6,794 nucleotides of DNA from a virus. Lineage: Duplodnaviria > Heunggongvirae > Uroviricota > Caudoviricetes. Within the stretch, counting starts at the first letter, position 1; every line of letters starts with the position of its first letter. This document shows, one piece after another, positions 386 to 6,794 of this stretch. A program made the position numbers and the translations under genes. The notes under the pieces were generated by a model, which searched no databases, was not told the DNA's origin, and saw only the letters and a list, made by a program, of their open reading frames with translations. The DNA is taken from the IMG/VR virus record IMGVR_UViG_2713897190_000004; one strand, 5' to 3'.

Positions 386-596
386 GTCTCATACTCCGGT
401 TAACGATGAAACCATGCAGGAGATTAACACTCTGCTGATCGCCCTGGATAAAACATGGGATGACGACTTATTGCCGCTCTGTTCCCAGATATTTCGCCGC
501 GACATTCGCGCATCGTCAGAACTGACACAGGCCGAAGCAGTGAAAGCTCTTGGATTCCTGAAACAGAAAGCCACTGAGCAGAAGGTGGCAGCATGA
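386..596 (+). pseudogene. bet: 3' fragment of bet (Red-beta single-strand annealing protein); the N-terminal roughly 190 codons are missing.
   Basis: The translation ...[67 protein letters not shown] matches the C-terminus of lambda Bet as I recall it. Its stop overlaps the exo start (ATGA at 593..596), as in lambda. The same frame has a stop at 291..293, and residues encoded by 294..385 do not resemble Bet, so the gene is truncated or replaced at about 380..390. Confidence 0.75.
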
Positions 597-1273
597 CACC
601 GGACATTATCCTGCAGCGTACCGGGATCGACGTGAGAGCTGTCGAACAGGGGGATGATGCATGGCACAAATTACGGCTCGGCGTCATCACCGCTTCAGAA
701 GTTCACAACGTGATAGCAAAACCCCGCTCCGGAAAGAAATGGCCTGACATGAAAATGTCCTACTTCCACACCCTGCTTGCTGAGGTTTGCACCGGTGTGG
801 CTCCGGAAGTTAACGCTAAGGCGCTGGCTTGGGGAAAACAGTACGAGAACGACGCCAGAGCCCTGTTTGAGTTTACTTCCGGCGTGAATGTTACTGAATC
901 CCCGATCATCTATCGCGACGAAAGTATGCGCACCGCCTGCTCTCCCGATGGTTTATGCAGTGACGGCAACGGCCTTGAGCTGAAATGCCCGTTTACCTCC
1001 CGGGATTTCATGAAGTTCCGGCTCGGTGGTTTCGAGGCCATAAAATCGGCTTACATGGCCCAGGTGCAGTACAGCATGTGGGTGACGCGAAAAGATGCCT
1101 GGTACTTTGCCAACTATGACCCGCGTATGAAGCGTGAAGGACTGCATTATGTCGTGGTTGAGCGGGATGAAAAGTACATGGCGAGTTTTGACGAGATGGT
1201 GCCGGAGTTCATCGAAAAAATGGACGAGGCACTGGCTGAAATTAGTTTTGTATTTGGGGAGCAATGGCGATGA
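593..1273 (+). CDS. exo: Lambda exonuclease (Red-alpha, 5'-3' dsDNA exonuclease), full length, 226 aa.
   Basis: 226-aa [57 protein letters not shown]..., which is near-identical to lambda Exo as I recall it. SD-like AAGGTGG lies upstream, and the start overlaps the stop of the bet fragment. Confidence 0.95.
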
Positions 1274-1452
1274 CGCATCCTCACGATAATATCCGGGTAG
1301 GCGCGATCACTTTCGTCTACTCCGTTACAAAGCGAGGCTGGGTATTTCCCGGCCTTTCTGTTATCAGAAATCCACTGAAAGCACAGCGGCTGGCTGAGAA
1401 GATAAATAATAAACGGGAGGCGGTATGCACAAAGCATCTCCTGTTGAGTTAA
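1264..1452 (+). CDS. Small hypothetical protein of the lambda pL operon, orf60a-like.
   Basis: 62-aa ORF immediately after exo, with its ATG overlapping the exo stop region. Position and size match lambda orf60a. Function unknown. Confidence 0.7.
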
Positions 1453-1616
1453 GAACGAGTATTGAGATGGCACATAGCCTTGCTCAAATTGGAGTCAGGT
1501 TTGTGCCAATACCAGTAGAAACAGACGAAGAATTTCATACGTTAGCCACATCCCTTTCACAAAAGCTGGAAATGATGGTGGCGAAAGCAGAAGCAGATGA
1601 GAGAGACCAGGTATGA
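1425..1616 (+). CDS. Small hypothetical protein of the lambda pL operon, orf63-like.
   Basis: 63-aa ORF overlapping the previous gene by 28 nt, as the lambda orf60a/orf63 pair does. GGGAGG lies upstream of the ATG. Confidence 0.7.
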   Translation: MHKASPVELRTSIEMAHSLAQIGVRFVPIPVETDEEFHTLATSLSQKLEMMVAKAEADERDQV

Positions 1617-1626
1617 CAACCACTGA

Positions 1627-1908
1627 ATGCATTTTTCTGGCAGCGGGCTTCATATTCTGTGTGCTTATGCTTGCCGACATGGGGCTTGTTCAGTGACACC
1701 TCAGCAAGAAAACGCCCTTCGCAGCATTGCCCGTCAGGCTAATTCTGAAATCAAAAAAGCCAGACAGCAGTTTCCGGATAAAAACGTCGATGACATTTGC
1801 CGTAGCGTACTAAAGAAGCACCGCGAAACGGTAACGCTGATGGGATTCACACCGACTCATTTAAGCCTGGCGATCGGCATGTTAAACGGCGTCTTTAAGG
1901 AACGGTGA
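1627..1908 (+). CDS. Hypothetical protein in the orf61 position; start uncertain (ATG 1627 or GTG 1693).
   Basis: ORF open 1627..1908. An in-frame GTG at 1693 would give a 71-aa product, VTPQQENALRSIARQANSEIKKARQQFPDKNVDD.... Ends 3 nt before a possible small ORF at 1911. Confidence 0.55.
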   Translation: MHFSGSGLHILCAYACRHGACSVTPQQENALRSIARQANSEIKKARQQFPDKNVDDICRSVLKKHRETVTLMGFTPTHLSLAIGMLNGVFKER

Positions 1909-2006
1909 ACATGAAAAGCAAAATCATCAGGGAGCTACAGGCTCCTTTTTTATTATTCGCATTCACCCTCAAGCGTATTAACCAACAATTCAGGGATTAA
2001 TGAAAG

Positions 2007-2228
2007 ATGGCGGACATCATTGATTCAGCATCAGAAATTGAAGAATTACAGCGCAATACAGCAATAAAAATGCGTCGTCTGAACTACCAGACTATATCCG
2101 CCACTCATTGTTGTGAGTGTGGCGATCCCATAGATGAACGAAGACGCCTGGTCGTTCAGGGTTGTCGGACTTGTGCAAGTTGCCAGGAGGATCTGGAGCT
2201 TATCAGTAAACAGAGAGGTTCGAAGTGA
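2007..2228 (+). CDS. TraR/DksA-family C4 zinc-finger protein (lambda orf73-like); likely binds the RNA polymerase secondary channel.
   Basis: 73-aa ORF with the motif CCECGDPIDERRRLVVQGCRTCASC (CxxC-17-CxxC), the pattern seen in F-plasmid TraR and the DksA C-terminus. An SD-like AGGGA lies upstream. Confidence 0.85.
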   Translation: MADIIDSASEIEELQRNTAIKMRRLNYQTISATHCCECGDPIDERRRLVVQGCRTCASCQEDLELISKQRGSK

Positions 2229-2989
2229 GCGAAATTAACTATCAGGCACTGCGTGAAGCGGCAGAAAAAGCAACGTGTGGTGAGTGGTCGCTCGAATATG
2301 GAGAGAGCCGATTTGATGGTGATTATGCGCTAATTCATCGTGAAGTTGCTGGATATATTCCCATTTGCAGAATTGAAGGAGCGCATCCAGAAAGCGGTTT
2401 CGATGAAGATTTCCAAATGGAACAGCAGGCCAATGCTGAATTCATCGCCGCAGCCAATCCGGCTACTGTGCTGGCACTGCTGGATGAACGGGAAAGAAAC
2501 CAGCAATACATAAAACGCCGCGACCAGGAGAACGAGGATATTGCTCTTACTGTTGGGAAGCTGAGAGTTGAGCTTGAGGAGACAAAATCAAAACTCAACG
2601 AGCAGCGTGAGTATTACGAAGGTGTTATCTCGGATGGGGGTAAGCGTATTGCTGAACTGGAGAAAAGCGAAGAGCAACTCATTAACGAGCGTGACCATGC
2701 TGAATCTGCTTTAGCAGATATGTACTTTGCAGCAACCGGGGATGAGCCGGAGTGGAGCAACTGGTTCGGCTTTTCAGATGCTGTCGATGCCGTGGTTGAC
2801 AGAATTGCTGATTTAGAAGCTAAACAGCCATCACCAGTAGTACCGGAAGGACTGGTTAAAGCAGTGCGCTTCTATGAACAGGTTAAGCGTGAAAATCCAC
2901 CAGTCGAAACAGAGGCATGGAAAGACGCTATTGACTGGGTGCTCAAAGAGTCTTGTCAGGCTGTAAACATTGATACCAATGGAGATTGA
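2225..2989 (+). CDS. ea22: Ea22-like protein, 254 aa, with a coiled-coil-prone central region.
   Basis: GTG start overlaps the stop of the TraR-like gene (GTGA at 2225..2228), with GAGGT 6 nt upstream. The N-terminus MSEINYQALREAAE... and the central block LLDERERNQQYIKRRDQENEDIALTVGKLRVELEE..KSKLNEQREYYEGVISDG match lambda Ea22 as I recall it; the rest diverges. Confidence 0.75.
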   Translation: MSEINYQALREAAEKATCGEWSLEYGESRFDGDYALIHREVAGYIPICRIEGAHPESGFDEDFQMEQQANAEFIAAANPATVLALLDERERNQQYIKRRDQENEDIALTVGKLRVELEETKSKLNEQREYYEGVISDGGKRIAELEKSEEQLINERDHAESALADMYFAATGDEPEWSNWFGFSDAVDAVVDRIADLEAKQPSPVVPEGLVKAVRFYEQVKRENPPVETEAWKDAIDWVLKESCQAVNIDTNGD

Positions 2990-2990
2990 T

Positions 2991-3245
2991 ATGAGCACTT
3001 TTACCGACAAAGAACTGATTAAAGAAATCAAAGAGCGTATCAGCAGTTTGGATGTGCGAGACAATGTTGAGCGCCGGGCTTATGAAATTGCTCTGGCATC
3101 GCTGGAAGAGAATCCGGTGGCATGGCTGCATTCAGACAATGGCTTAGGTATTCCGGCAATAACGAGGAGTAAAAACATTGCTGACAGTTGGTTATCAAAG
3201 GGTTGGTATGTTCAGCCGCTATATATGCCAAGCCAGTGCCAGTAG
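2991..3245 (+). CDS. Hypothetical protein, 84 aa as read; probably the N-terminal piece of a frameshifted paralog of the 4004..4744 gene.
   Basis: ATG at 2991 with GGAG 6 nt upstream, 1 nt after the ea22-like stop. Its N-terminus MSTFTDKELIKEIKERISSL...RRAYEIALASLEENP parallels the N-terminus of the 4004 product (MTTITKERIELFIKNPL...MELARIALASLEREQ). Confidence 0.55.
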   Translation: MSTFTDKELIKEIKERISSLDVRDNVERRAYEIALASLEENPVAWLHSDNGLGIPAITRSKNIADSWLSKGWYVQPLYMPSQCQ

Positions 3246-3262
3246 TACCTGAAGAAAAACCA

Positions 3263-3796
3263 ATGCCTAACCCTCTTAGCATGTACGCGGTCGATGCTGT
3301 TGCCGCTATTGCAGAGGTGAGAGGCTGGAACGCCTGCCGCGCGGCTATGCTTCATGCCGGAAACTTTCGGGAAAACGCGAATTCGTCAACCAATAATTTT
3401 CGGGAAATTTCGGAAACGTCAACCAACTCTCCGGTAATTCCTGGTGAGGTGTTGTCCGCAATCCTGAAATTTGCCAGAGTTCGTGCTGATTTCGATGATT
3501 TTGACGGCGACAGGCGAGGTATCGGTGATTGTCTGGATGAGGCTGAGCAAGAGCTTATCGTTACCATTAACAAATATGCCAGTCAGTTGGCAGCAGAACC
3601 GATAGCGACTAATGACGTTCGAGAGCAGCAGACAGCCGTTCCGCCAGTTCCTGTAATACAGGCTGATGTCGCGCAAGCAATTGAAAATCTCAGGCAGAAG
3701 TTAGTGGAATGCAATCGCTATAACTACTGCGCAGATGCAGTTAAGGGCGTAGAGGATGCCTGCCACGCTGCCATGCTTCAGGGAAAAAGAGAGTGA
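3263..3796 (+). CDS. Hypothetical protein; probably the C-terminal piece of the same frameshifted gene. Start uncertain (frame open from 3185; ATG at 3263 or 3281).
   Basis: ORF in the frame of 3188..3796. No convincing SD precedes any candidate start, unlike every other gene in the operon. Contains NSPVIP, encoded by an 18-bp stretch identical to one in the 4004..4744 gene. Stop at 3794..3796 lies 1 nt before the next start. Confidence 0.5.
   Translation: MPNPLSMYAVDAVAAIAEVRGWNACRAAMLHAGNFRENANSSTNNFREISETSTNSPVIPGEVLSAILKFARVRADFDDFDGDRRGIGDCLDEAEQELIVTINKYASQLAAEPIATNDVREQQTAVPPVPVIQADVAQAIENLRQKLVECNRYNYCADAVKGVEDACHAAMLQGKRE
3362..3427 (+). repeat. Imperfect 33-bp (11-codon) tandem duplication inside the 3263..3796 coding region.
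   Basis: Two adjacent units, aactttcgggaaaacgcgaattcgtcaaccaat and aattttcgggaaatttcggaaacgtcaaccaac, encoding NFRENANSSTN and NFREISETSTN in frame. Confidence 0.6.
3424..3441 (+). repeat. 18-bp exact direct repeat (copy 1), caactctccggtaattcc, encoding NSPVIP.
   Basis: Identical 18-mer found again at 4411..4428 inside the paralogous gene. Confidence 0.8.
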
Positions 3797-3797
3797 T

Positions 3798-4007
3798 ATG
3801 GCTATTGCCGCAAGTTACACCATGCATCTCTATTGTGATTGTCGCCAGTGTACGGAAGGTGTATATCCAGTGCCAGACTTCGGTGAGTATATCGGTACGT
3901 CATGGTCTGGTTGTGCAAAAGAGGCCCGTAAAGACGGGTGGCGAATAAGCAAAGACAAAACACGTACTTTTGCGCCCGGGCATAAAGTTTTGAGGATTAA
4001 CACATGA
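3798..4007 (+). CDS. Small cysteine-rich protein, 69 aa, possible Zn-binding; function unknown.
   Basis: ATG at 3798 with AGAGAG upstream. Translation MAIAASYTMHLYCDCRQCTEGVYPVPDFGEYIGTSWSGCAKEARKDGWRISKDKTRTFAPGHKVLRINT has a C-x-C-x2-C cluster plus a distal Cys and His. Its stop overlaps the next start (ATGA at 4004..4007). Confidence 0.6.
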   Translation: MAIAASYTMHLYCDCRQCTEGVYPVPDFGEYIGTSWSGCAKEARKDGWRISKDKTRTFAPGHKVLRINT

Positions 4008-4744
4008 CCACTATTACCAAAGAACGTATTGAATTGTTCATTAAAAATCCGCTTGAAAACGGGCTTACTCGTGGCGAACAAATGGAACTAGCACGAATTG
4101 CACTGGCATCACTGGAACGCGAACAGATTCGCCACGAGCATGCCAAATGGTCTGACTCCACATTTGGCTGCGTTGGCCCCATTGGTCCACTGAAACACCT
4201 CTCAAAAGAGGCACTGGAAGCCGCAGCCGAACCAGACGATCTTAGCGAGTGGGCTGATATGCAGTTTCTGTTGTGGGATGCACAGCGCCGTGCTGGCATC
4301 AGCGATGCTGAAATTACCGTTGCTATGGAAGATAAATTGAAGATCAACATGGAGCGCCAGTGGCCTGAGCCAAAAGATGGTGAGCCTCGCTTGCACATTA
4401 AAGAACCCGGCAACTCTCCGGTAATTCCGGATGGTTTATCCACGGTATGCGCTGAGGCTTATCAGGTTGTAGGAGTTATGGCAGATGCGCTTGGTGTATT
4501 CGGTGATGCAGCAGTACAGAAAGTTCTGGATAACCTGTCACAGCAAAAACTTGTTCACAGAGATGTGCTGCCGTTCTCGCTTCCGGTAACTCCGGATGGT
4601 TGGGTTATGGTTCCTAAACAGGTAACGCCGGAAATCAGCAACGCGATAAACGTTGTGGGTCAACGCTGTACATGCGGAAATTGCTCTCAGCGGTTGTGGG
4701 ATTTATTACTCGACGCCACACAGCAAGGAGTTAACCGTGGCTAA
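4004..4744 (+). CDS. Hypothetical protein, 246 aa; intact paralog of the 2991..3796 locus.
   Basis: ATG at 4004 with GAGGA 7 nt upstream. Shares the IALASLE N-terminal motif and the NSPVIP motif with the upstream locus. C-terminus contains CTCGNC. Confidence 0.75.
   Translation: MTTITKERIELFIKNPLENGLTRGEQMELARIALASLEREQIRHEHAKWSDSTFGCVGPIGPLKHLSKEALEAAAEPDDLSEWADMQFLLWDAQRRAGISDAEITVAMEDKLKINMERQWPEPKDGEPRLHIKEPGNSPVIPDGLSTVCAEAYQVVGVMADALGVFGDAAVQKVLDNLSQQKLVHRDVLPFSLPVTPDGWVMVPKQVTPEISNAINVVGQRCTCGNCSQRLWDLLLDATQQGVNRG
4411..4428 (+). repeat. 18-bp exact direct repeat (copy 2), caactctccggtaattcc, encoding NSPVIP.
   Basis: Identical to 3424..3441. Flanking bases differ on both sides. Confidence 0.8.
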
Positions 4745-5021
4745 CCTGCAACTTGCCGTTAAAGGTGAATACTTCGATGCCATGATTCGCGGAGAGAAAA
4801 CGGAAGAGTATCGCCTGTGTAATGACTACTGGAAAAAGCGCCTCGTTAACCGTAAGCATGACCGCCTGATTATCACAAAGGGATATCCGAAGCGCGACGA
4901 TTCCAGCCGCAGAGTTGATGTTCCGTATGACGGATATGAAGTGAAGACAATCACACATCCGCACTTCGGTGATAAACCGGTAAAGGTATACGCGATAAAG
5001 GTAAATATCGGCACTGAATAA
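4737..5021 (+). CDS. ASCH/PUA-like domain protein (putative), 94 aa from the GTG start.
   Basis: GTG at 4737 preceded by AAGGAG (4725..4730) at 6-nt spacing, overlapping the stop of the previous gene. The N-terminal LAVKGEYFDAMIRGEKTEEYR resembles the G-x-K-T-x-E-x-R signature of ASCH-domain proteins (for example E. coli YqfB), from memory. Confidence 0.6.
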   Translation: MANLQLAVKGEYFDAMIRGEKTEEYRLCNDYWKKRLVNRKHDRLIITKGYPKRDDSSRRVDVPYDGYEVKTITHPHFGDKPVKVYAIKVNIGTE

Positions 5022-5046
5022 CAATCCGCACAACACAAGGTCAAGA

Positions 5047-5286
5047 ATGTTCAGAGTGATTTACCCTAACACCTGGTACGTCGACCACCACGGCACTCCC
5101 TGCAAAATCCTGCGTTCCACTCACAACAAAGTTCACTACATCCGAAAAGGCAGAACATGTATCGCCAGCATGTTCCGCTTTAATCATGACTTTGAACCTG
5201 TGAATAAAGCTGACGCAGATCGGATAGCTGAAGAGATCGAAACAGCAGAACACATTAAGAAGTTACGTGCCATACGCAGGAAATAG
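5047..5286 (+). CDS. Hypothetical protein, 79 aa, basic C-terminus.
   Basis: ATG at 5047 with AAGG 6 nt upstream. Last gene before the AT-rich spacer that precedes xis. No recognisable motif. Confidence 0.55.
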   Translation: MFRVIYPNTWYVDHHGTPCKILRSTHNKVHYIRKGRTCIASMFRFNHDFEPVNKADADRIAEEIETAEHIKKLRAIRRK

Positions 5287-5425
5287 AAAAATTGATAAAT
5301 TCAATACTGCATTTCTCAGCATTAAATTTATCTCTATGACCAGTCAAGAGATGTACCTGCCATGAGCTTAATATCATGTCAGATATATCGGTCACAAACT
5401 CCCTCAGCAGCTAAGAGGAGGACAA

Positions 5426-5662
5426 ATGTCTCGACTAATCACTTTACAGGACTGGGCTAAAGAAGAATTTGGGGACTTAGCACCAAGTGAGCGAGTTCTG
5501 AAAAAATACGCGCAAGGGAAAATGATGGCCCCACCCGCTATAAAAGTTGGTCGCTACTGGATGATTGACCGAAATTCCCGTTTTGTAGGAACGCTTGCAG
5601 AACCGCAACTCCCAATAAACGCAAACCCAAAACTCCAACGGATAATCGCTGATGGCTGCTAG
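5426..5662 (+). CDS. xis: Excisionase (lambda Xis-family winged-helix recombination directionality factor).
   Basis: 78-aa ORF with a strong SD (TAAGAGGAGG) upstream. Sequence ITLQDWAKEE...APPAIKVGRYWMI parallels lambda Xis (LTLQEWNARQ...FPPPVKDGREYLF). The 3' end overlaps the int start by 11 nt. Confidence 0.85.
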   Translation: MSRLITLQDWAKEEFGDLAPSERVLKKYAQGKMMAPPAIKVGRYWMIDRNSRFVGTLAEPQLPINANPKLQRIIADGC

Positions 5663-6794
5663 ACCCCGATCTCACAAAATCTCTATACCCAATTTATATT
5701 GCAAATTAGATAAGCGAACCGGAAAGGTATATTGGCAATACAAACATCCACTATCCGGTCGTTTTCATAGCTTAGGAACTGATGAGAATGAAGCAAAACA
5801 AGTTGCTACTGAAGCAAATACCATTATTGCTGAACAACGTACCCGACAAATATTAAGCGTCAATGAGCGTCTAGAAAGAATGAAAGGCAGGCGCTCAGAC
5901 ATTACGGTGACAGAATGGCTTGATAAATATATTTCTATCCAGGAGGACAGGCTGCAACATAATGAACTAAGACCCAACTCCTATCGGCAAAAAGGCAAAC
6001 CCATTCGTCTTTTCCGTGAGCATTGTGGAATGCAACACCTCAAGGATATTACCGCACTTGATATTGCCGAAATAATTGATGCTGTAAAGGCTGAAGGTCA
6101 TAACAGGATGGCGCAAGTCGTGAGAATGGTGTTGATCGACGTCTTCAAAGAAGCACAACACGCAGGACATGTTCCGCCAGGATTTAACCCAGCGCAGGCA
6201 ACAAAACAACCGCGAAATCGAGTAAACCGCCAAAGATTATCACTGCCCGAATGGCAGGCAATATTTGACAGCGTAAGCAGACGGCAGCCCTATTTAAAAT
6301 GCGGGATGCTACTTGCTCTTGTCACTGGACAACGTTTAGGCGATATCTGCAATTTGAAATTCTCTGATATCTGGGACGACATGTTGCACATTACTCAGGA
6401 AAAAACCGGTTCAAAACTTGCTATTCCGCTTAACCTGAAATGCGATGCTCTGAATATTACCCTTCGTGAAGTTATATCTCAGTGCAGGGATGCTGTTGTT
6501 AGTAAATATCTGGTCCATTACCGTCACACTACCTCTCAAGCAAACAGAGGAGACCAGGTGTCTGCAAATACTCTTACAACGGCTTTTAAAAAGGCCAGGG
6601 AAAAATGTGGCATAAAATGGGAGCCAGGAACTGCGCCCACATTTCATGAGCAGCGATCTCTGTCAGAACGGTTATATCGGGAACAGGGTCTGGATACGCA
6701 AAAGTTGTTAGGTCATAAATCCAGAAAAATGACCGACCGATACAATGATGATCGTGGTAAAGACTGGATTATCGTAGATATCAAAACAGCATAG
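5652..6794 (+). CDS. int: Tyrosine integrase, lambda Int family, full length 380 aa; divergent from lambda Int.
   Basis: Clear similarity to lambda and HK022 Int over the catalytic domain: LVTGQRLGDICNLKFSDI, KTGSKLAIPL, PTFHEQRSLSERLY, LLGHKSRKMTDRYNDDRGKDW. The catalytic R, K, H-x-x-R, H and Y positions are all present. The stop codon is the last 3 nt of the window. Confidence 0.95.
   Translation: MAARPRSHKISIPNLYCKLDKRTGKVYWQYKHPLSGRFHSLGTDENEAKQVATEANTIIAEQRTRQILSVNERLERMKGRRSDITVTEWLDKYISIQEDRLQHNELRPNSYRQKGKPIRLFREHCGMQHLKDITALDIAEIIDAVKAEGHNRMAQVVRMVLIDVFKEAQHAGHVPPGFNPAQATKQPRNRVNRQRLSLPEWQAIFDSVSRRQPYLKCGMLLALVTGQRLGDICNLKFSDIWDDMLHITQEKTGSKLAIPLNLKCDALNITLREVISQCRDAVVSKYLVHYRHTTSQANRGDQVSANTLTTAFKKAREKCGIKWEPGTAPTFHEQRSLSERLYREQGLDTQKLLGHKSRKMTDRYNDDRGKDWIIVDIKTA

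Follow-up and report, generated by a model that had tools for sequence, protein, structure and literature searches.

Sequence comparison points to a fixed one-nucleotide deletion that splits a modular exo-xis accessory gene of a lambdoid Escherichia coli prophage

The Ea22, EaA and DUF551 proteins of lambdoid phages are encoded in the exo-xis region, which here means the segment from ea22 to xis. The gene studied here lies in the same region and has in common with them the early pL unit, block-wise mosaicism and portable C-terminal domains (PMC10834534, PMC7093339). In contrast to these proteins, it has no Ead_Ea22 domain (PF13935), and the copy studied here also has no DUF551. Two proteins of CPS-53-type prophages are related to parts of it. 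Multicopy yfdT or yfdS, each together with yfdQR, suppresses the over-initiation of hda-185 (PMC4776307). The first ~42 aa of YfdT from K-12 (b2363, CPS-53-type) match the leader of our gene (MTTFTNKELIKEIKERISSLEVRDDIERRAYEIAL...), while the rest of YfdT is unrelated. The DUF551 protein WP_001377405.1 of strain AR434, encoded downstream of yfdS, has the leader and the following PVAW domain in common with our gene (~95% DNA identity) and an intact tract at the site described below, but it ends in a DUF551 domain. MazZ is a phage dATP/dGTP pyrophosphohydrolase (PMC10834534), and papers on nucleotide metabolism in Z-genome phages discuss its domain, DUF550.

We analysed a stretch of 6,794 nt of viral DNA, referred to as the window. 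On sequence grounds it is very probable that positions 2991-3796 represent a single exo-xis accessory gene of a lambdoid E. coli prophage, which was split by a fixed one-nucleotide deletion of an ordinary, heritable kind. The lesion is not a repeat-unit slip, a reversible switch, programmed recoding or a sequencing error. The split itself is already known, as RefSeq marks the copy in strain CFT073 as a frameshifted pseudogene. The features of the locus are listed in Table 1.

Table 1. Features of the split gene and of the downstream gene (positions in the window)
Feature	Position	Strand	Description
ORF1	2991..3245	+	84 aa; N-terminal part of the split gene
IALASLE junction motif	3086..3107	+	end of leader; counterpart at 4096-4117 in the downstream gene; 91% identity
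Second frame	3185-3796	+	-1 frame relative to ORF1; last upstream stop at 3182-3184
Two-frame overlap	3185..3242	+	sole interval with both frames open; from stop positions
TATATAT tract	3220..3226	+	frameshift site; one A absent between 3226 and 3227
C-terminal part of the split gene	3227..3796	+	-1 frame; listed mechanically as a 202-aa TTG ORF from 3188
CCAGTGCC microhomology	3233..3240	+	in PVPVVP linker; left crossover of mosaic patch
Mosaic patch	3241 to ~3321	+	differs between the window and the HVH 109 prophage, which is otherwise identical
Candidate independently translated remnant (MPNPL...)	3263..3796	+	177 aa; ATG 17 nt past the ORF1 stop
Imperfect 33-nt tandem duplication (NFRENANSSTN / NFREISETSTN)	3362..3426	+	linker preceding NSPVIP; from repeat search
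NSPVIP linker motif, upstream-gene copy	3424..3441	+	module junction
Cys-rich 69-aa gene (phrog_926)	3798..4007	+	outside the split gene, between it and the downstream gene
Downstream mosaic gene	4004..4744	+	intact, 246 aa; PF04447, PHROG matches, repeats
Leader of downstream protein	aa 1-41	+	first module
DUF550/MazZ-type dATP/dGTP pyrophosphohydrolase domain (predicted)	aa 42-137, nt 4127-4414	+	PF04447
NSPVIP linker, downstream-gene copy	4411-4428	+	followed by a further module
LPVTPDGW linker	4582-4601	+	followed by the C-terminal module

The first-pass annotation had read the two overlapping frames as halves of one gene, and this was confirmed by the frames and by the homologs. Translation of ORF1 runs from ATG 2991 to TAG 3243 and gives a leader helical hairpin, a small PVAW...GWYVQPLY domain and an out-of-frame tail of six residues (MPSQCQ). 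The positions of the stop codons agreed with the proposal that both frames are open only across a short interval. Both parts lie within one ORF in thousands of homologs, which do not consistently occur as two separate genes. More than 100 homologs among the matches listed span 97-100% of the repaired product with a single ORF, and single-ORF homologs such as those of phage ASO78B and Stx1a phages align over 100% of the repaired product with 70-92% identity. In alignments, the part from 3227 on corresponds to the C-terminal portion of single ORFs of 259 to more than 400 aa, and it is 100% identical to its counterparts in two of them (P0003 and P0001), except for a patch in the middle. Most of the longer homologs (~400 aa) end in a C-terminal PF04448 (DUF551) domain, and the window gene stops short of it. 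A Pfam search with both halves gave no matches and hence no DUF551 domain, and an Rfam scan of the whole window was empty. By profile, ORF1 matched phrog_5117, phrog_660 and phrog_3323, and the remnant from 3263 matched phrog_14306 over its full length (E=3e-110). The grouping of ORF1 with the upstream 254-aa Ea22 in one protein cluster was treated as a clustering artefact. The first-pass annotation had also stated that the downstream piece lacks a Shine-Dalgarno (SD) sequence, unlike every other gene. The first part holds, as no SD-like sequence was present upstream of TTG 3188 or ATG 3281, and the sole SD-like element upstream of ATG 3263 is a weak GAAG. The second part does not, since orf61 (1627) and int (5652) also have no obvious SD.

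We compared the frameshift site with its intact relatives. The sequence CTATATATG is located at 3219-3227 as described earlier, and removal of TA at 3220-3221 joins the frames to ...GWYVQPLYAKPVPVVPEEKP..., a product of 267 aa. While this arithmetic was correct, the slippage of a TA unit derived from it was not supported, because the window differs from the intact relatives by 1 nt. Where these relatives have CCGCTATATATAGCC (PLYIAKP), the window has CCGCTATATAT-GCC, one A short. DNA alignments with three of them (L002, L008 and the IMG/VR copy L038) likewise showed the window to be one A short of TATATATA. The tract is thus (TA)3T in the window and (TA)4 in the intact alleles. Among 94 IMG/VR copies the tract had 7 nt in 90 (89 ATATATA, one ATACATA) and 6 nt in 4 (ATATAT); no (TA)2 form, no 4-nt or 8-nt tract and no other length was found. 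All intact proteins with the PVAW...VQPLY domain read VQPLY(I/M/V)A(K/Q)P. Of 38 VQPLY-containing proteins, 16 had VQPLYIAKP and none had VQPLYAKP. The correct repair is therefore the addition of an A, giving PLYIAKP and 268 aa, and not the removal of TA. An ancestor with (TA)2 (PLYAKP), from which the window gained one TA unit, would fit the arithmetic of the 267-aa product. It is nevertheless hardly plausible, since this state was absent from the 38 proteins and the 94 DNA copies and the near-identical prophage of E. coli HVH 109 has TATATATA; no close relatives with CTATATGCC were found. Since all intact relatives have CTATATATAGCC (Leu-Tyr-Ile-Ala), the comparison indicates that a single A has gone from the window and that no TA was added. 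From these alignments the lesion is a fixed one-nucleotide deletion, with the A lost from CTATATATAGCC between 3226 and 3227.

The frameshifted allele was found in identical form in 90 complete E. coli genomes, including CFT073, ABU 83972 and ATCC 25922, and in the phages ev017 and PhiR57_1. It was present in these 90 genomes, in 4 contigs of IMG/VR and in 3 phage records, as well as on at least 1000 contigs. When 5,426 complete genomes were searched with the repaired query, the best match (99.5%) was the frameshifted allele itself, in 90 genomes, and no repaired allele was found. Each of the split products, in its exact form of 84 aa or 202/177 aa, was found on at least 1000 contigs, and the repaired proteins (+A or -TA form) were both absent from 15 billion sequences. 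The frameshifted copies were 99-100% identical to one another, the 6-nt tract was invariant within its lineage, and the lesion recurred in independent assemblies from several sources. A sequencing or assembly error in the window, which had been offered as one option, could be argued from the general possibility of single-base indels. However, the same base is missing in all the records counted above, among them 90 independently sequenced complete genomes, and the chance of such an error is negligible. The occurrence of the same allele in many independent records, together with the lack of any repaired protein, excluded sequencing error and also argued against phase variation. As a contingency switch, slippage of TA units would toggle between the split and the full-length gene; the lesion indeed sits in an alternating TA run, and removal of one unit restores the frame. 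Against this, the tract has just 3.5 units and is separated from the intact alleles by 1 nt and not by a whole unit. Neither a 4-nt or 8-nt tract in the IMG/VR copies nor a repaired allele in the complete genomes was seen, and no revertant of either kind was found in the genomes, phages and contigs surveyed. The contrast between no repaired proteins and split products on at least 1000 contigs points in the same direction. Dinucleotide phase switches known so far have many more repeat units. We consider such a switch, which had been a further option, to be very improbable.

Programmed recoding would allow some ribosomes to shift to the -1 frame within 3185-3242 and to produce the full-length protein. 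This could occur at the heptamer A_AAG_GGT (3197-3203), or by re-pairing of tRNA-Tyr from UAU 3222-3224 to UAU 3224-3226, and a peptide spanning the junction would read ...QPLYAKPVP... or ...SKGLVCSAAIYAKP.... The second frame is indeed the -1 frame, the heptamer is of the type X_XXY_YYZ and lies in the phase of ORF1 inside the overlap, and UAUAUAU permits perfect re-pairing of tRNA-Tyr two bases downstream. However, the two-frame layout is not conserved, as the homologs are single ORFs. The fold of 3204-3290 is not stable (z=+0.55; 142 of 200 shuffles fold as well), and a shift at the heptamer would swap the conserved WYVQPLY strand for LVCSAAIY. A-site slips of the GGG type and +2 shifts are inefficient. 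Recoding is therefore highly unlikely.

We also asked where the deletion lies relative to the domains of the protein. The AF2 model of ORF1 had a pLDDT of 80.8, with residues 1-79 folded and a tail of low confidence. The model of the intact ortholog (P0001) had a mean pLDDT of 47, with residues 80-172 below pLDDT 50; it served only to show where the N-domain is ordered and the linkers are disordered, and not for fold searches. According to these models, the break is exactly at the domain boundary, where the disordered PVPVVP linker starts, so that the 84-aa product would keep the whole N-terminal folded unit. Foldseek with the ORF1 model gave no meaningful match in the PDB (best E 0.44), and in BFVD its matches were limited to uncharacterised proteins of phages, a MazZ-domain protein matched in the leader only and weak similarities to DUF551. 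A sequence search of the PDB with the intact ortholog gave no matches. The linkers that join modules in exo-xis accessory genes are IALASLE, PVPVVP, AC(R/H)AAML and NSPV(I/T)PDGW. Exactly at the IALASLE motif, at least six unrelated leaders are joined to the same following domain in the homologs. In the ea22 of the window itself, a PVVPE linker is likewise present at 2826-2849. A scan of 2900-4800 with Tandem Repeats Finder gave nothing that scored 30 or above, and the 33-nt duplication of Table 1 comes from another repeat search only.

The consequences of the deletion can be outlined from these data. Loss of one A from CTATATATAGCC would make translation from ATG 2991 stop at TAG 3243 and give an 84-aa protein consisting of the leader hairpin and the PVAW...GWYVQPLY domain, with the folded unit whole. 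The remaining ~185 codons, without a start or SD of their own, would be silent or weakly re-initiated at ATG 3263. We infer that expression of the C-terminal part is lost or reduced and that the function of the 84-aa piece is retained. Alternatively, the deletion could have made two useful polypeptides, the 84-aa N-domain and a 177-aa protein re-initiated at ATG 3263, and the split would be kept by selection. The 84-aa piece is similar to stand-alone forms of 86-93 aa that occur naturally, and intact proteins of 86-105 aa have exactly its architecture, some of which end in ...GWYVQPLHLAQPASKL (P0274-P0283) and others in ...PLYIAQPMPIQEPPQEVK (P0232-P0239). The break at a domain/linker boundary and the ATG 17 nt past the ORF1 stop also fit such a fission, as do the wide distribution of the allele, its presence in viable phages and its combination with several variants of the leader and with a further C-terminal module. 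The frameshift tail PLYMPSQCQ was found on several diverged leaders (P0126, P0134, P0259), and an ORF2 of the frameshift type was also seen with a different C-terminal module (P0144). This indicates persistence through recombination, which might not be expected for a purely deleterious lesion. On the other hand, there is no real SD at 3263 or 3281, and PGAP calls the locus a pseudogene. Clonal spread of a single prophage through ExPEC lineages that have been sequenced many times can account for the abundance, as the copies are 100% identical, and the frameshifted copies show no divergence in which constraint could become visible; since they are essentially identical, selection on either half cannot be measured. 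We regard fission as unlikely. If it were true, the split version would be the successful allele of a widespread ExPEC prophage and of viable phages. In a variant of this reading, rare re-pairing of tRNA-Tyr on UAUAUAU would in addition give a small amount of full-length product.

The intact 259-aa ortholog of E. coli HVH 109 (G770_01276, P0001) lies in the same type of prophage and has the same neighbours as in the window; the gene order there is Ea22, ortholog of the split gene, 83-aa gene, DUF550 gene, ASCH, DUF4222, xis, int and icd. The window and this prophage showed no mismatches over ~5.2 kb (1528-3240 and ~3322-6794), save the missing A and a patch of ~80 bp. The N-terminal 78 aa of the ortholog are identical to residues 1-78 of ORF1, and its C-terminal ~157 aa are also identical. 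It differs by the extra A (PLYIAKP, TATATATA) and by a middle module that reads DARPTLNNGIVGFDE instead of EEKPMPNPLSMYAVDAVAAIAEVR. The difference may have arisen either by patch and deletion in an HVH 109-like ancestor or by a conversion of ~100 bp from a CPS-53-type donor that repaired a frameshifted ancestor. A junction between the N-domain and the downstream module that exists solely in the frameshifted form was considered and dropped, as the IMG/VR copy L038 has an intact tract and the same downstream module; a junction-specific protein search returned mostly short proteins and no intact junction with the same downstream module. The CFT073 locus C_RS30805 (RefSeq NC_004431.1, 1402035-1402486) lies in the same prophage, has the same frameshift and is 100% identical in DNA over 2991-3796. 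PGAP labels it 'hypothetical protein; frameshifted; incomplete', and the pseudogene spans 2991-3442 only; its protein alignment stops at the NSPVIP motif (window position 3442). Unlike the window, the CFT073 prophage has ISEc10 inside ea22 and IS3 in xis; in the source of the window, ISEc10 adjoins a truncated bet.

The gene at 4004-4744 had been taken as a tandem paralog of the split gene. Residues 42-137 of its product match the full MazZ profile (DUF550, PF04447; E=8e-42; score 141.8 bits, gathering threshold 23; profile positions 1-96 of 97 covered), which makes the product a putative dATP/dGTP pyrophosphohydrolase. Unlike MazZ of Z-genome phages, the domain is set between a leader and further modules, and the window has no PurZ or DpoZ. 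A PDB sequence search with this protein gave no matches. The DNA similarities between the two genes that the first-pass annotation had listed were both found: an exact 18-nt repeat CAACTCTCCGGTAATTCC encodes NSPVIP in both genes (by our own arithmetic, chance alone would give ~3e-4 such repeats in 6.8 kb), and 19 of 22 positions match between 3087-3108 and 4097-4118. BLASTP of the repaired product against the downstream protein recovered only the ~48-aa leader (residues 1-48) and the NSPVIP region, each with E=0.13. Of the tandem paralogs, the homologous leader stood, but the genes are not adjacent, as the 69-aa gene lies between them, and there is no similarity beyond leader and NSPVIP; the reading as a paralogous pair was given up. 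Both leaders matched phrog_3323 (E=5.5e-10 and 1.1e-13), phrog_660 and phrog_60, and at the level of these profiles they are truly homologous. In other proteins, e.g., P0164 and P0173, the leader of the 4004 type is fused to PVAW/PVAY domains. Leader and NSPVIP are, however, junction motifs common to a large mosaic family, and they give no evidence of local duplication. The similarity of the two genes is limited to an exchangeable leader and the short linker motifs of module shuffling, and the downstream gene is best described as intact and of the same modular family, but carrying another cargo, the DUF550/MazZ-like domain.

Outside annotation, the significance of the split is slight. A single gene is the source of the 'hypothetical proteins' of 84, 202, 177 and 171 aa called on thousands of E. 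coli contigs, which are its fragments; even a PHROG family, phrog_14306, was seeded by them. The locus illustrates, cleanly and on a small scale, the assembly of exo-xis accessory genes from exchangeable modules at short conserved linkers, and a complete domain is left behind when a lesion falls on such a linker. If a function of the family is found, be it in replication initiation as for YfdT/YfdS or in the lysis-lysogeny decision as for Ea22, the CFT073/ATCC 25922 lineage would be a natural truncation mutant.

The locus belongs to a lambdoid prophage and lies in its pL-side accessory region, where all genes are on the plus strand. Escherichia phage PhiR57_1 showed 99.98% identity to window positions 390-6794. 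The segment 2991-3796 was 100% identical to the prophages of CFT073, ABU 83972, ATCC 25922 and clone D, and the same match was present in a further 85 or so complete E. coli genomes, in phage ev017 and in PhiR57_1. Bases 1 to ~393-400 are the terminal part of ISEc10 (IS21 family; 99-100% identity to ISEc10 copies), with istA annotated beneath the match. The ISEc10 end adjoins a C-terminal bet remnant (ORF 312-596), and bet is therefore disrupted in the source prophage. In this prophage as carried by CFT073, ISEc10 lies instead within ea22 and an IS3 within xis. The ASCH-domain gene encodes 94 aa; a mechanical ORF listing gave 4653-5021. Its start and the DUF550 stop codon overlap (GTGGCTAA), and the start is preceded by a good Shine-Dalgarno sequence, AAGGAG, an arrangement that is by its sequence typical of translational coupling.

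Genes of the region and linker motifs shared between them (window positions)
Feature	Position	Strand	Remark
exo	593-1273	+	
orf60a, orf63, orf61		+	after exo
orf73	2007-2228	+	TraR-like
Ea22	2225-2989	+	PF13935
split gene		+	after Ea22; locus in question
69-aa gene	3798-4007	+	
DUF550 gene	4004-4744	+	
ASCH gene	4737-5021	+	GTG start
DUF4222 gene		+	after ASCH gene
xis	5426	+	
int	5652-6794	+	
PVVPE	2826-2849 / 3231-3254		
IALASLE	3086-3107 / 4096-4117		
AC(R/H)AAML	3332-3354 / 3758-3780		
SPV(I/T)P(D)GW	3430-3449 / 4417-4436 / 4582-4601		

The first-pass annotation had proposed that the gene downstream of ea22 is split by a frameshift, and this was confirmed, since homologs carry both parts in a single ORF. 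What the first-pass annotation had stated about the sequence proved correct throughout. ORF1 spans 2991-3245, and the second frame (ORF2), which is -1 with respect to ORF1, stays open over 3185-3796. The two frames are open together only in the interval 3185-3242, and CTATATATG is present at 3219-3227. Relatives of the repaired product, the conceptual single-frame translation, number in the thousands; among the matches listed, 97-100% of it was covered by a single ORF at 70-92% identity. In the intact proteins of phage vB_EcoS_ASO78B and of Stx1a phages (~275-288 aa), a leader and a small domain continue into ...PVVPEEKPMPNPLSMYAVDAVAAIAEVRGWNACRAAML..., after which comes the C-terminal part, equivalent to 3233-3790 of the window. 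The closest relative, protein P0001 of E. coli HVH 109 (259 aa), is the product of an intact gene that lies beside icd in the same prophage, among the same neighbours.

All three intact comparators, namely AR434 (L002), HVH 109 (L008) and an IMG/VR contig (L038), have CCGCTATATATAGCCAAGCCAGTGCC, encoding P-L-Y-I-A-K-P-V-P, where the window has CCGCTATATAT-GCCAAGCCAGTGCC. We also scanned IMG/VR for the stretch between CCGCT and GCCAAG. Intact copies had ATATATA (89 copies) or ATACATA (1 copy), frameshifted copies had ATATAT (4 copies), and no tract lengths other than the 7 nt or 6 nt of these three states occurred in the scan. The event was therefore a one-base deletion between positions 3226 and 3227, in which a 7-nt tract lost one A. 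Deletion of one TA does join the frames to a 267-aa product, as had been computed, but the suggested slippage of a TA unit was not borne out: no TA unit was gained or lost. The true repaired product has 268 aa and includes Ile79. VQPLYIAKP occurred in 16 retrieved proteins and VQPLY(I/M/V)AQP in others, while VQPLYAKP occurred in none of those retrieved. The frameshift is real and had been correctly located: a mosaic accessory gene of the prophage has lost 1 nt, and the deletion is fixed. Public annotation already records it, the CFT073 copy being flagged 'frameshifted' by PGAP.

When the repaired tract was used as a query against 5,426 complete genomes, the best match (99.5% identity) was the frameshifted allele itself, in 90 genomes. 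The exact 84-aa, 202-aa and 177-aa products were each found on at least 1000 contigs, and the four frameshifted IMG/VR copies matched the window at 100% identity across the stretch available for each. The presence of one allele in so many complete genomes, and of its split products on so many contigs, ruled out a sequencing error. A phase-variable switch was not supported either, as no repaired allele occurred in the complete genomes and both the +A (268 aa) and the -TA (267 aa) products were absent among ~15 billion proteins. The tract lacks the defining features of a contingency locus: it has 3.5 TA units, is one base away from the tract of its relatives and does not vary in length within its lineage. 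Programmed recoding, in which ribosomes shift from the ORF1 frame into ORF2, would fit the -1 relation of the frames and an in-phase A_AAG_GGT heptamer at 3197-3203. However, homologs lack the two-frame layout, the downstream RNA fold was no better than that of shuffled sequence (z=+0.55), and frameshifting at the heptamer would cost the protein its conserved WYVQPLY strand. That tRNA-Tyr re-pairs two bases on (+2) along UAUAUAU is conceivable but improbable.

Compared to the HVH 109 prophage, the window had no mismatches over 1528-3240 and ~3322-6794. The sole differences there were the missing A and a replaced patch from 3241 to ~3321, which is identical to another allele (protein P0003, locus L009). 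The left crossover of the patch lies in CCAGTGCC (3233-3240), 6 nt past the deletion site. It is possible that an HVH 109-like ancestor acquired patch and deletion jointly or in quick succession. Alternatively, the rare HVH 109 allele could be the derivative, with a ~100 bp conversion from a CPS-53-type donor having replaced tract and middle module. In L038 an intact tract is naturally joined to the EEKP module, and the junction itself therefore does not need the frameshift. Among related contigs the frameshift allele was found in more than one sequence context, so the lesion persisted through later recombination. Protein P0144 is a fusion of a frameshift-type ORF2 (MVIKGLVCSAAIYAKP...) with a DUF551 module at the C-terminus, and P0126, P0134 and P0259 are ORF1 variants with diverged leaders and the same PLYMPSQCQ tail.

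The AF2 model of ORF1 (32-sequence alignment; pLDDT 80.8) showed helices at 6-19 and 25-39 followed by a beta-beta-alpha-beta unit at 44-77, with low confidence confined to the out-of-frame tail. Residues 80-172 of the intact ortholog were predicted to be disordered, and exactly two parts, leader and PVAW domain, make up natural intact proteins of 86-105 aa; one of these proteins, P0282, was on 81 contigs. We concluded that the 84-aa product is a complete domain, which may well still be functional. No credible Shine-Dalgarno sequence precedes the C-terminal part, as the first-pass annotation had noted, and at best this part could be re-initiated at ATG 3263, 17 nt beyond the stop. The ORF from this ATG matches phrog_14306 (177 positions) end to end; this family appears to derive from what the frameshift left of the gene's C-terminal part and not from a genuine full-length protein.

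The split gene and the 4004-4744 gene had been regarded as tandem paralogs. The underlying similarities were reproduced (18 nt repeated exactly, at 3424-3441 and at 4411-4428; 19/22 matches between 3087-3108 and 4097-4118), but the paralogous pair was not: BLASTP of the repaired product against the 246-aa protein matched residues 1-48 and the NSPVIP region (E=0.13 for each) and nothing else, and the 69-aa gene separates the two genes. The leaders of both genes are homologous at the profile level, as phrog_3323, phrog_660 and phrog_60 were matched from the same profile positions. In other proteins the 4004-type leader (MTTITKERIELFIKNPLENGLTRGEQMELARIALASLE) is fused to PVAW/PVAY domains, and the same PVAW domain carries at least six unrelated leaders, joined exactly at the IALASLE motif. 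Short linker motifs recur at the DNA level in three consecutive genes, ea22, the split gene and the DUF550 gene, and coincide with module boundaries or exchange points in homologs. From their sequence, they resemble connectors at which recombination shuffles domains among the accessory genes of the exo-xis region. Shared leaders and linkers thus make both genes members of one 'Lego-like' family with common connectors and not a locally duplicated pair; paralogy is confined to the exchangeable connectors. The SPVIPDG linker DNA TCCGGTAATTCCGGA (4417-4431) is a perfect palindrome with 5-bp arms and was for this reason picked up by the terminator scan. An imperfect 33-nt tandem duplication at 3362-3426 (NFRENANSSTN / NFREISETSTN), in the disordered linker before NSPVIP, is also present in intact homologs. 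The PGAP annotation of CFT073 presents the intact 246-aa DUF550 gene as two entries, a 'partial hypothetical protein' for the leader (L001, the CFT073 locus, 5014-5139; window counterpart 4004-4129) and a DUF550 protein that begins at an internal start (5113-5754). The division is an artefact of annotation that stems from the modular nature of the family, and no lesion.

No Pfam match was found for the split gene, the PDB yielded neither a sequence match nor a significant fold match, and a BFVD fold search returned only uncharacterised phage proteins. Three leads on its function are given by its leader, its location and its neighbour. The leader of ORF1 has its match at the N-terminus of K-12 YfdT, a protein involved in the multicopy suppression of replication over-initiation (PMC4776307). 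The gene is located in the exo-xis region; genes of this region modulate the choice between lysis and lysogeny (PMC7093339, PMC10834534). The neighbouring 4004 gene has, by sequence match, a DUF550/MazZ-type domain.
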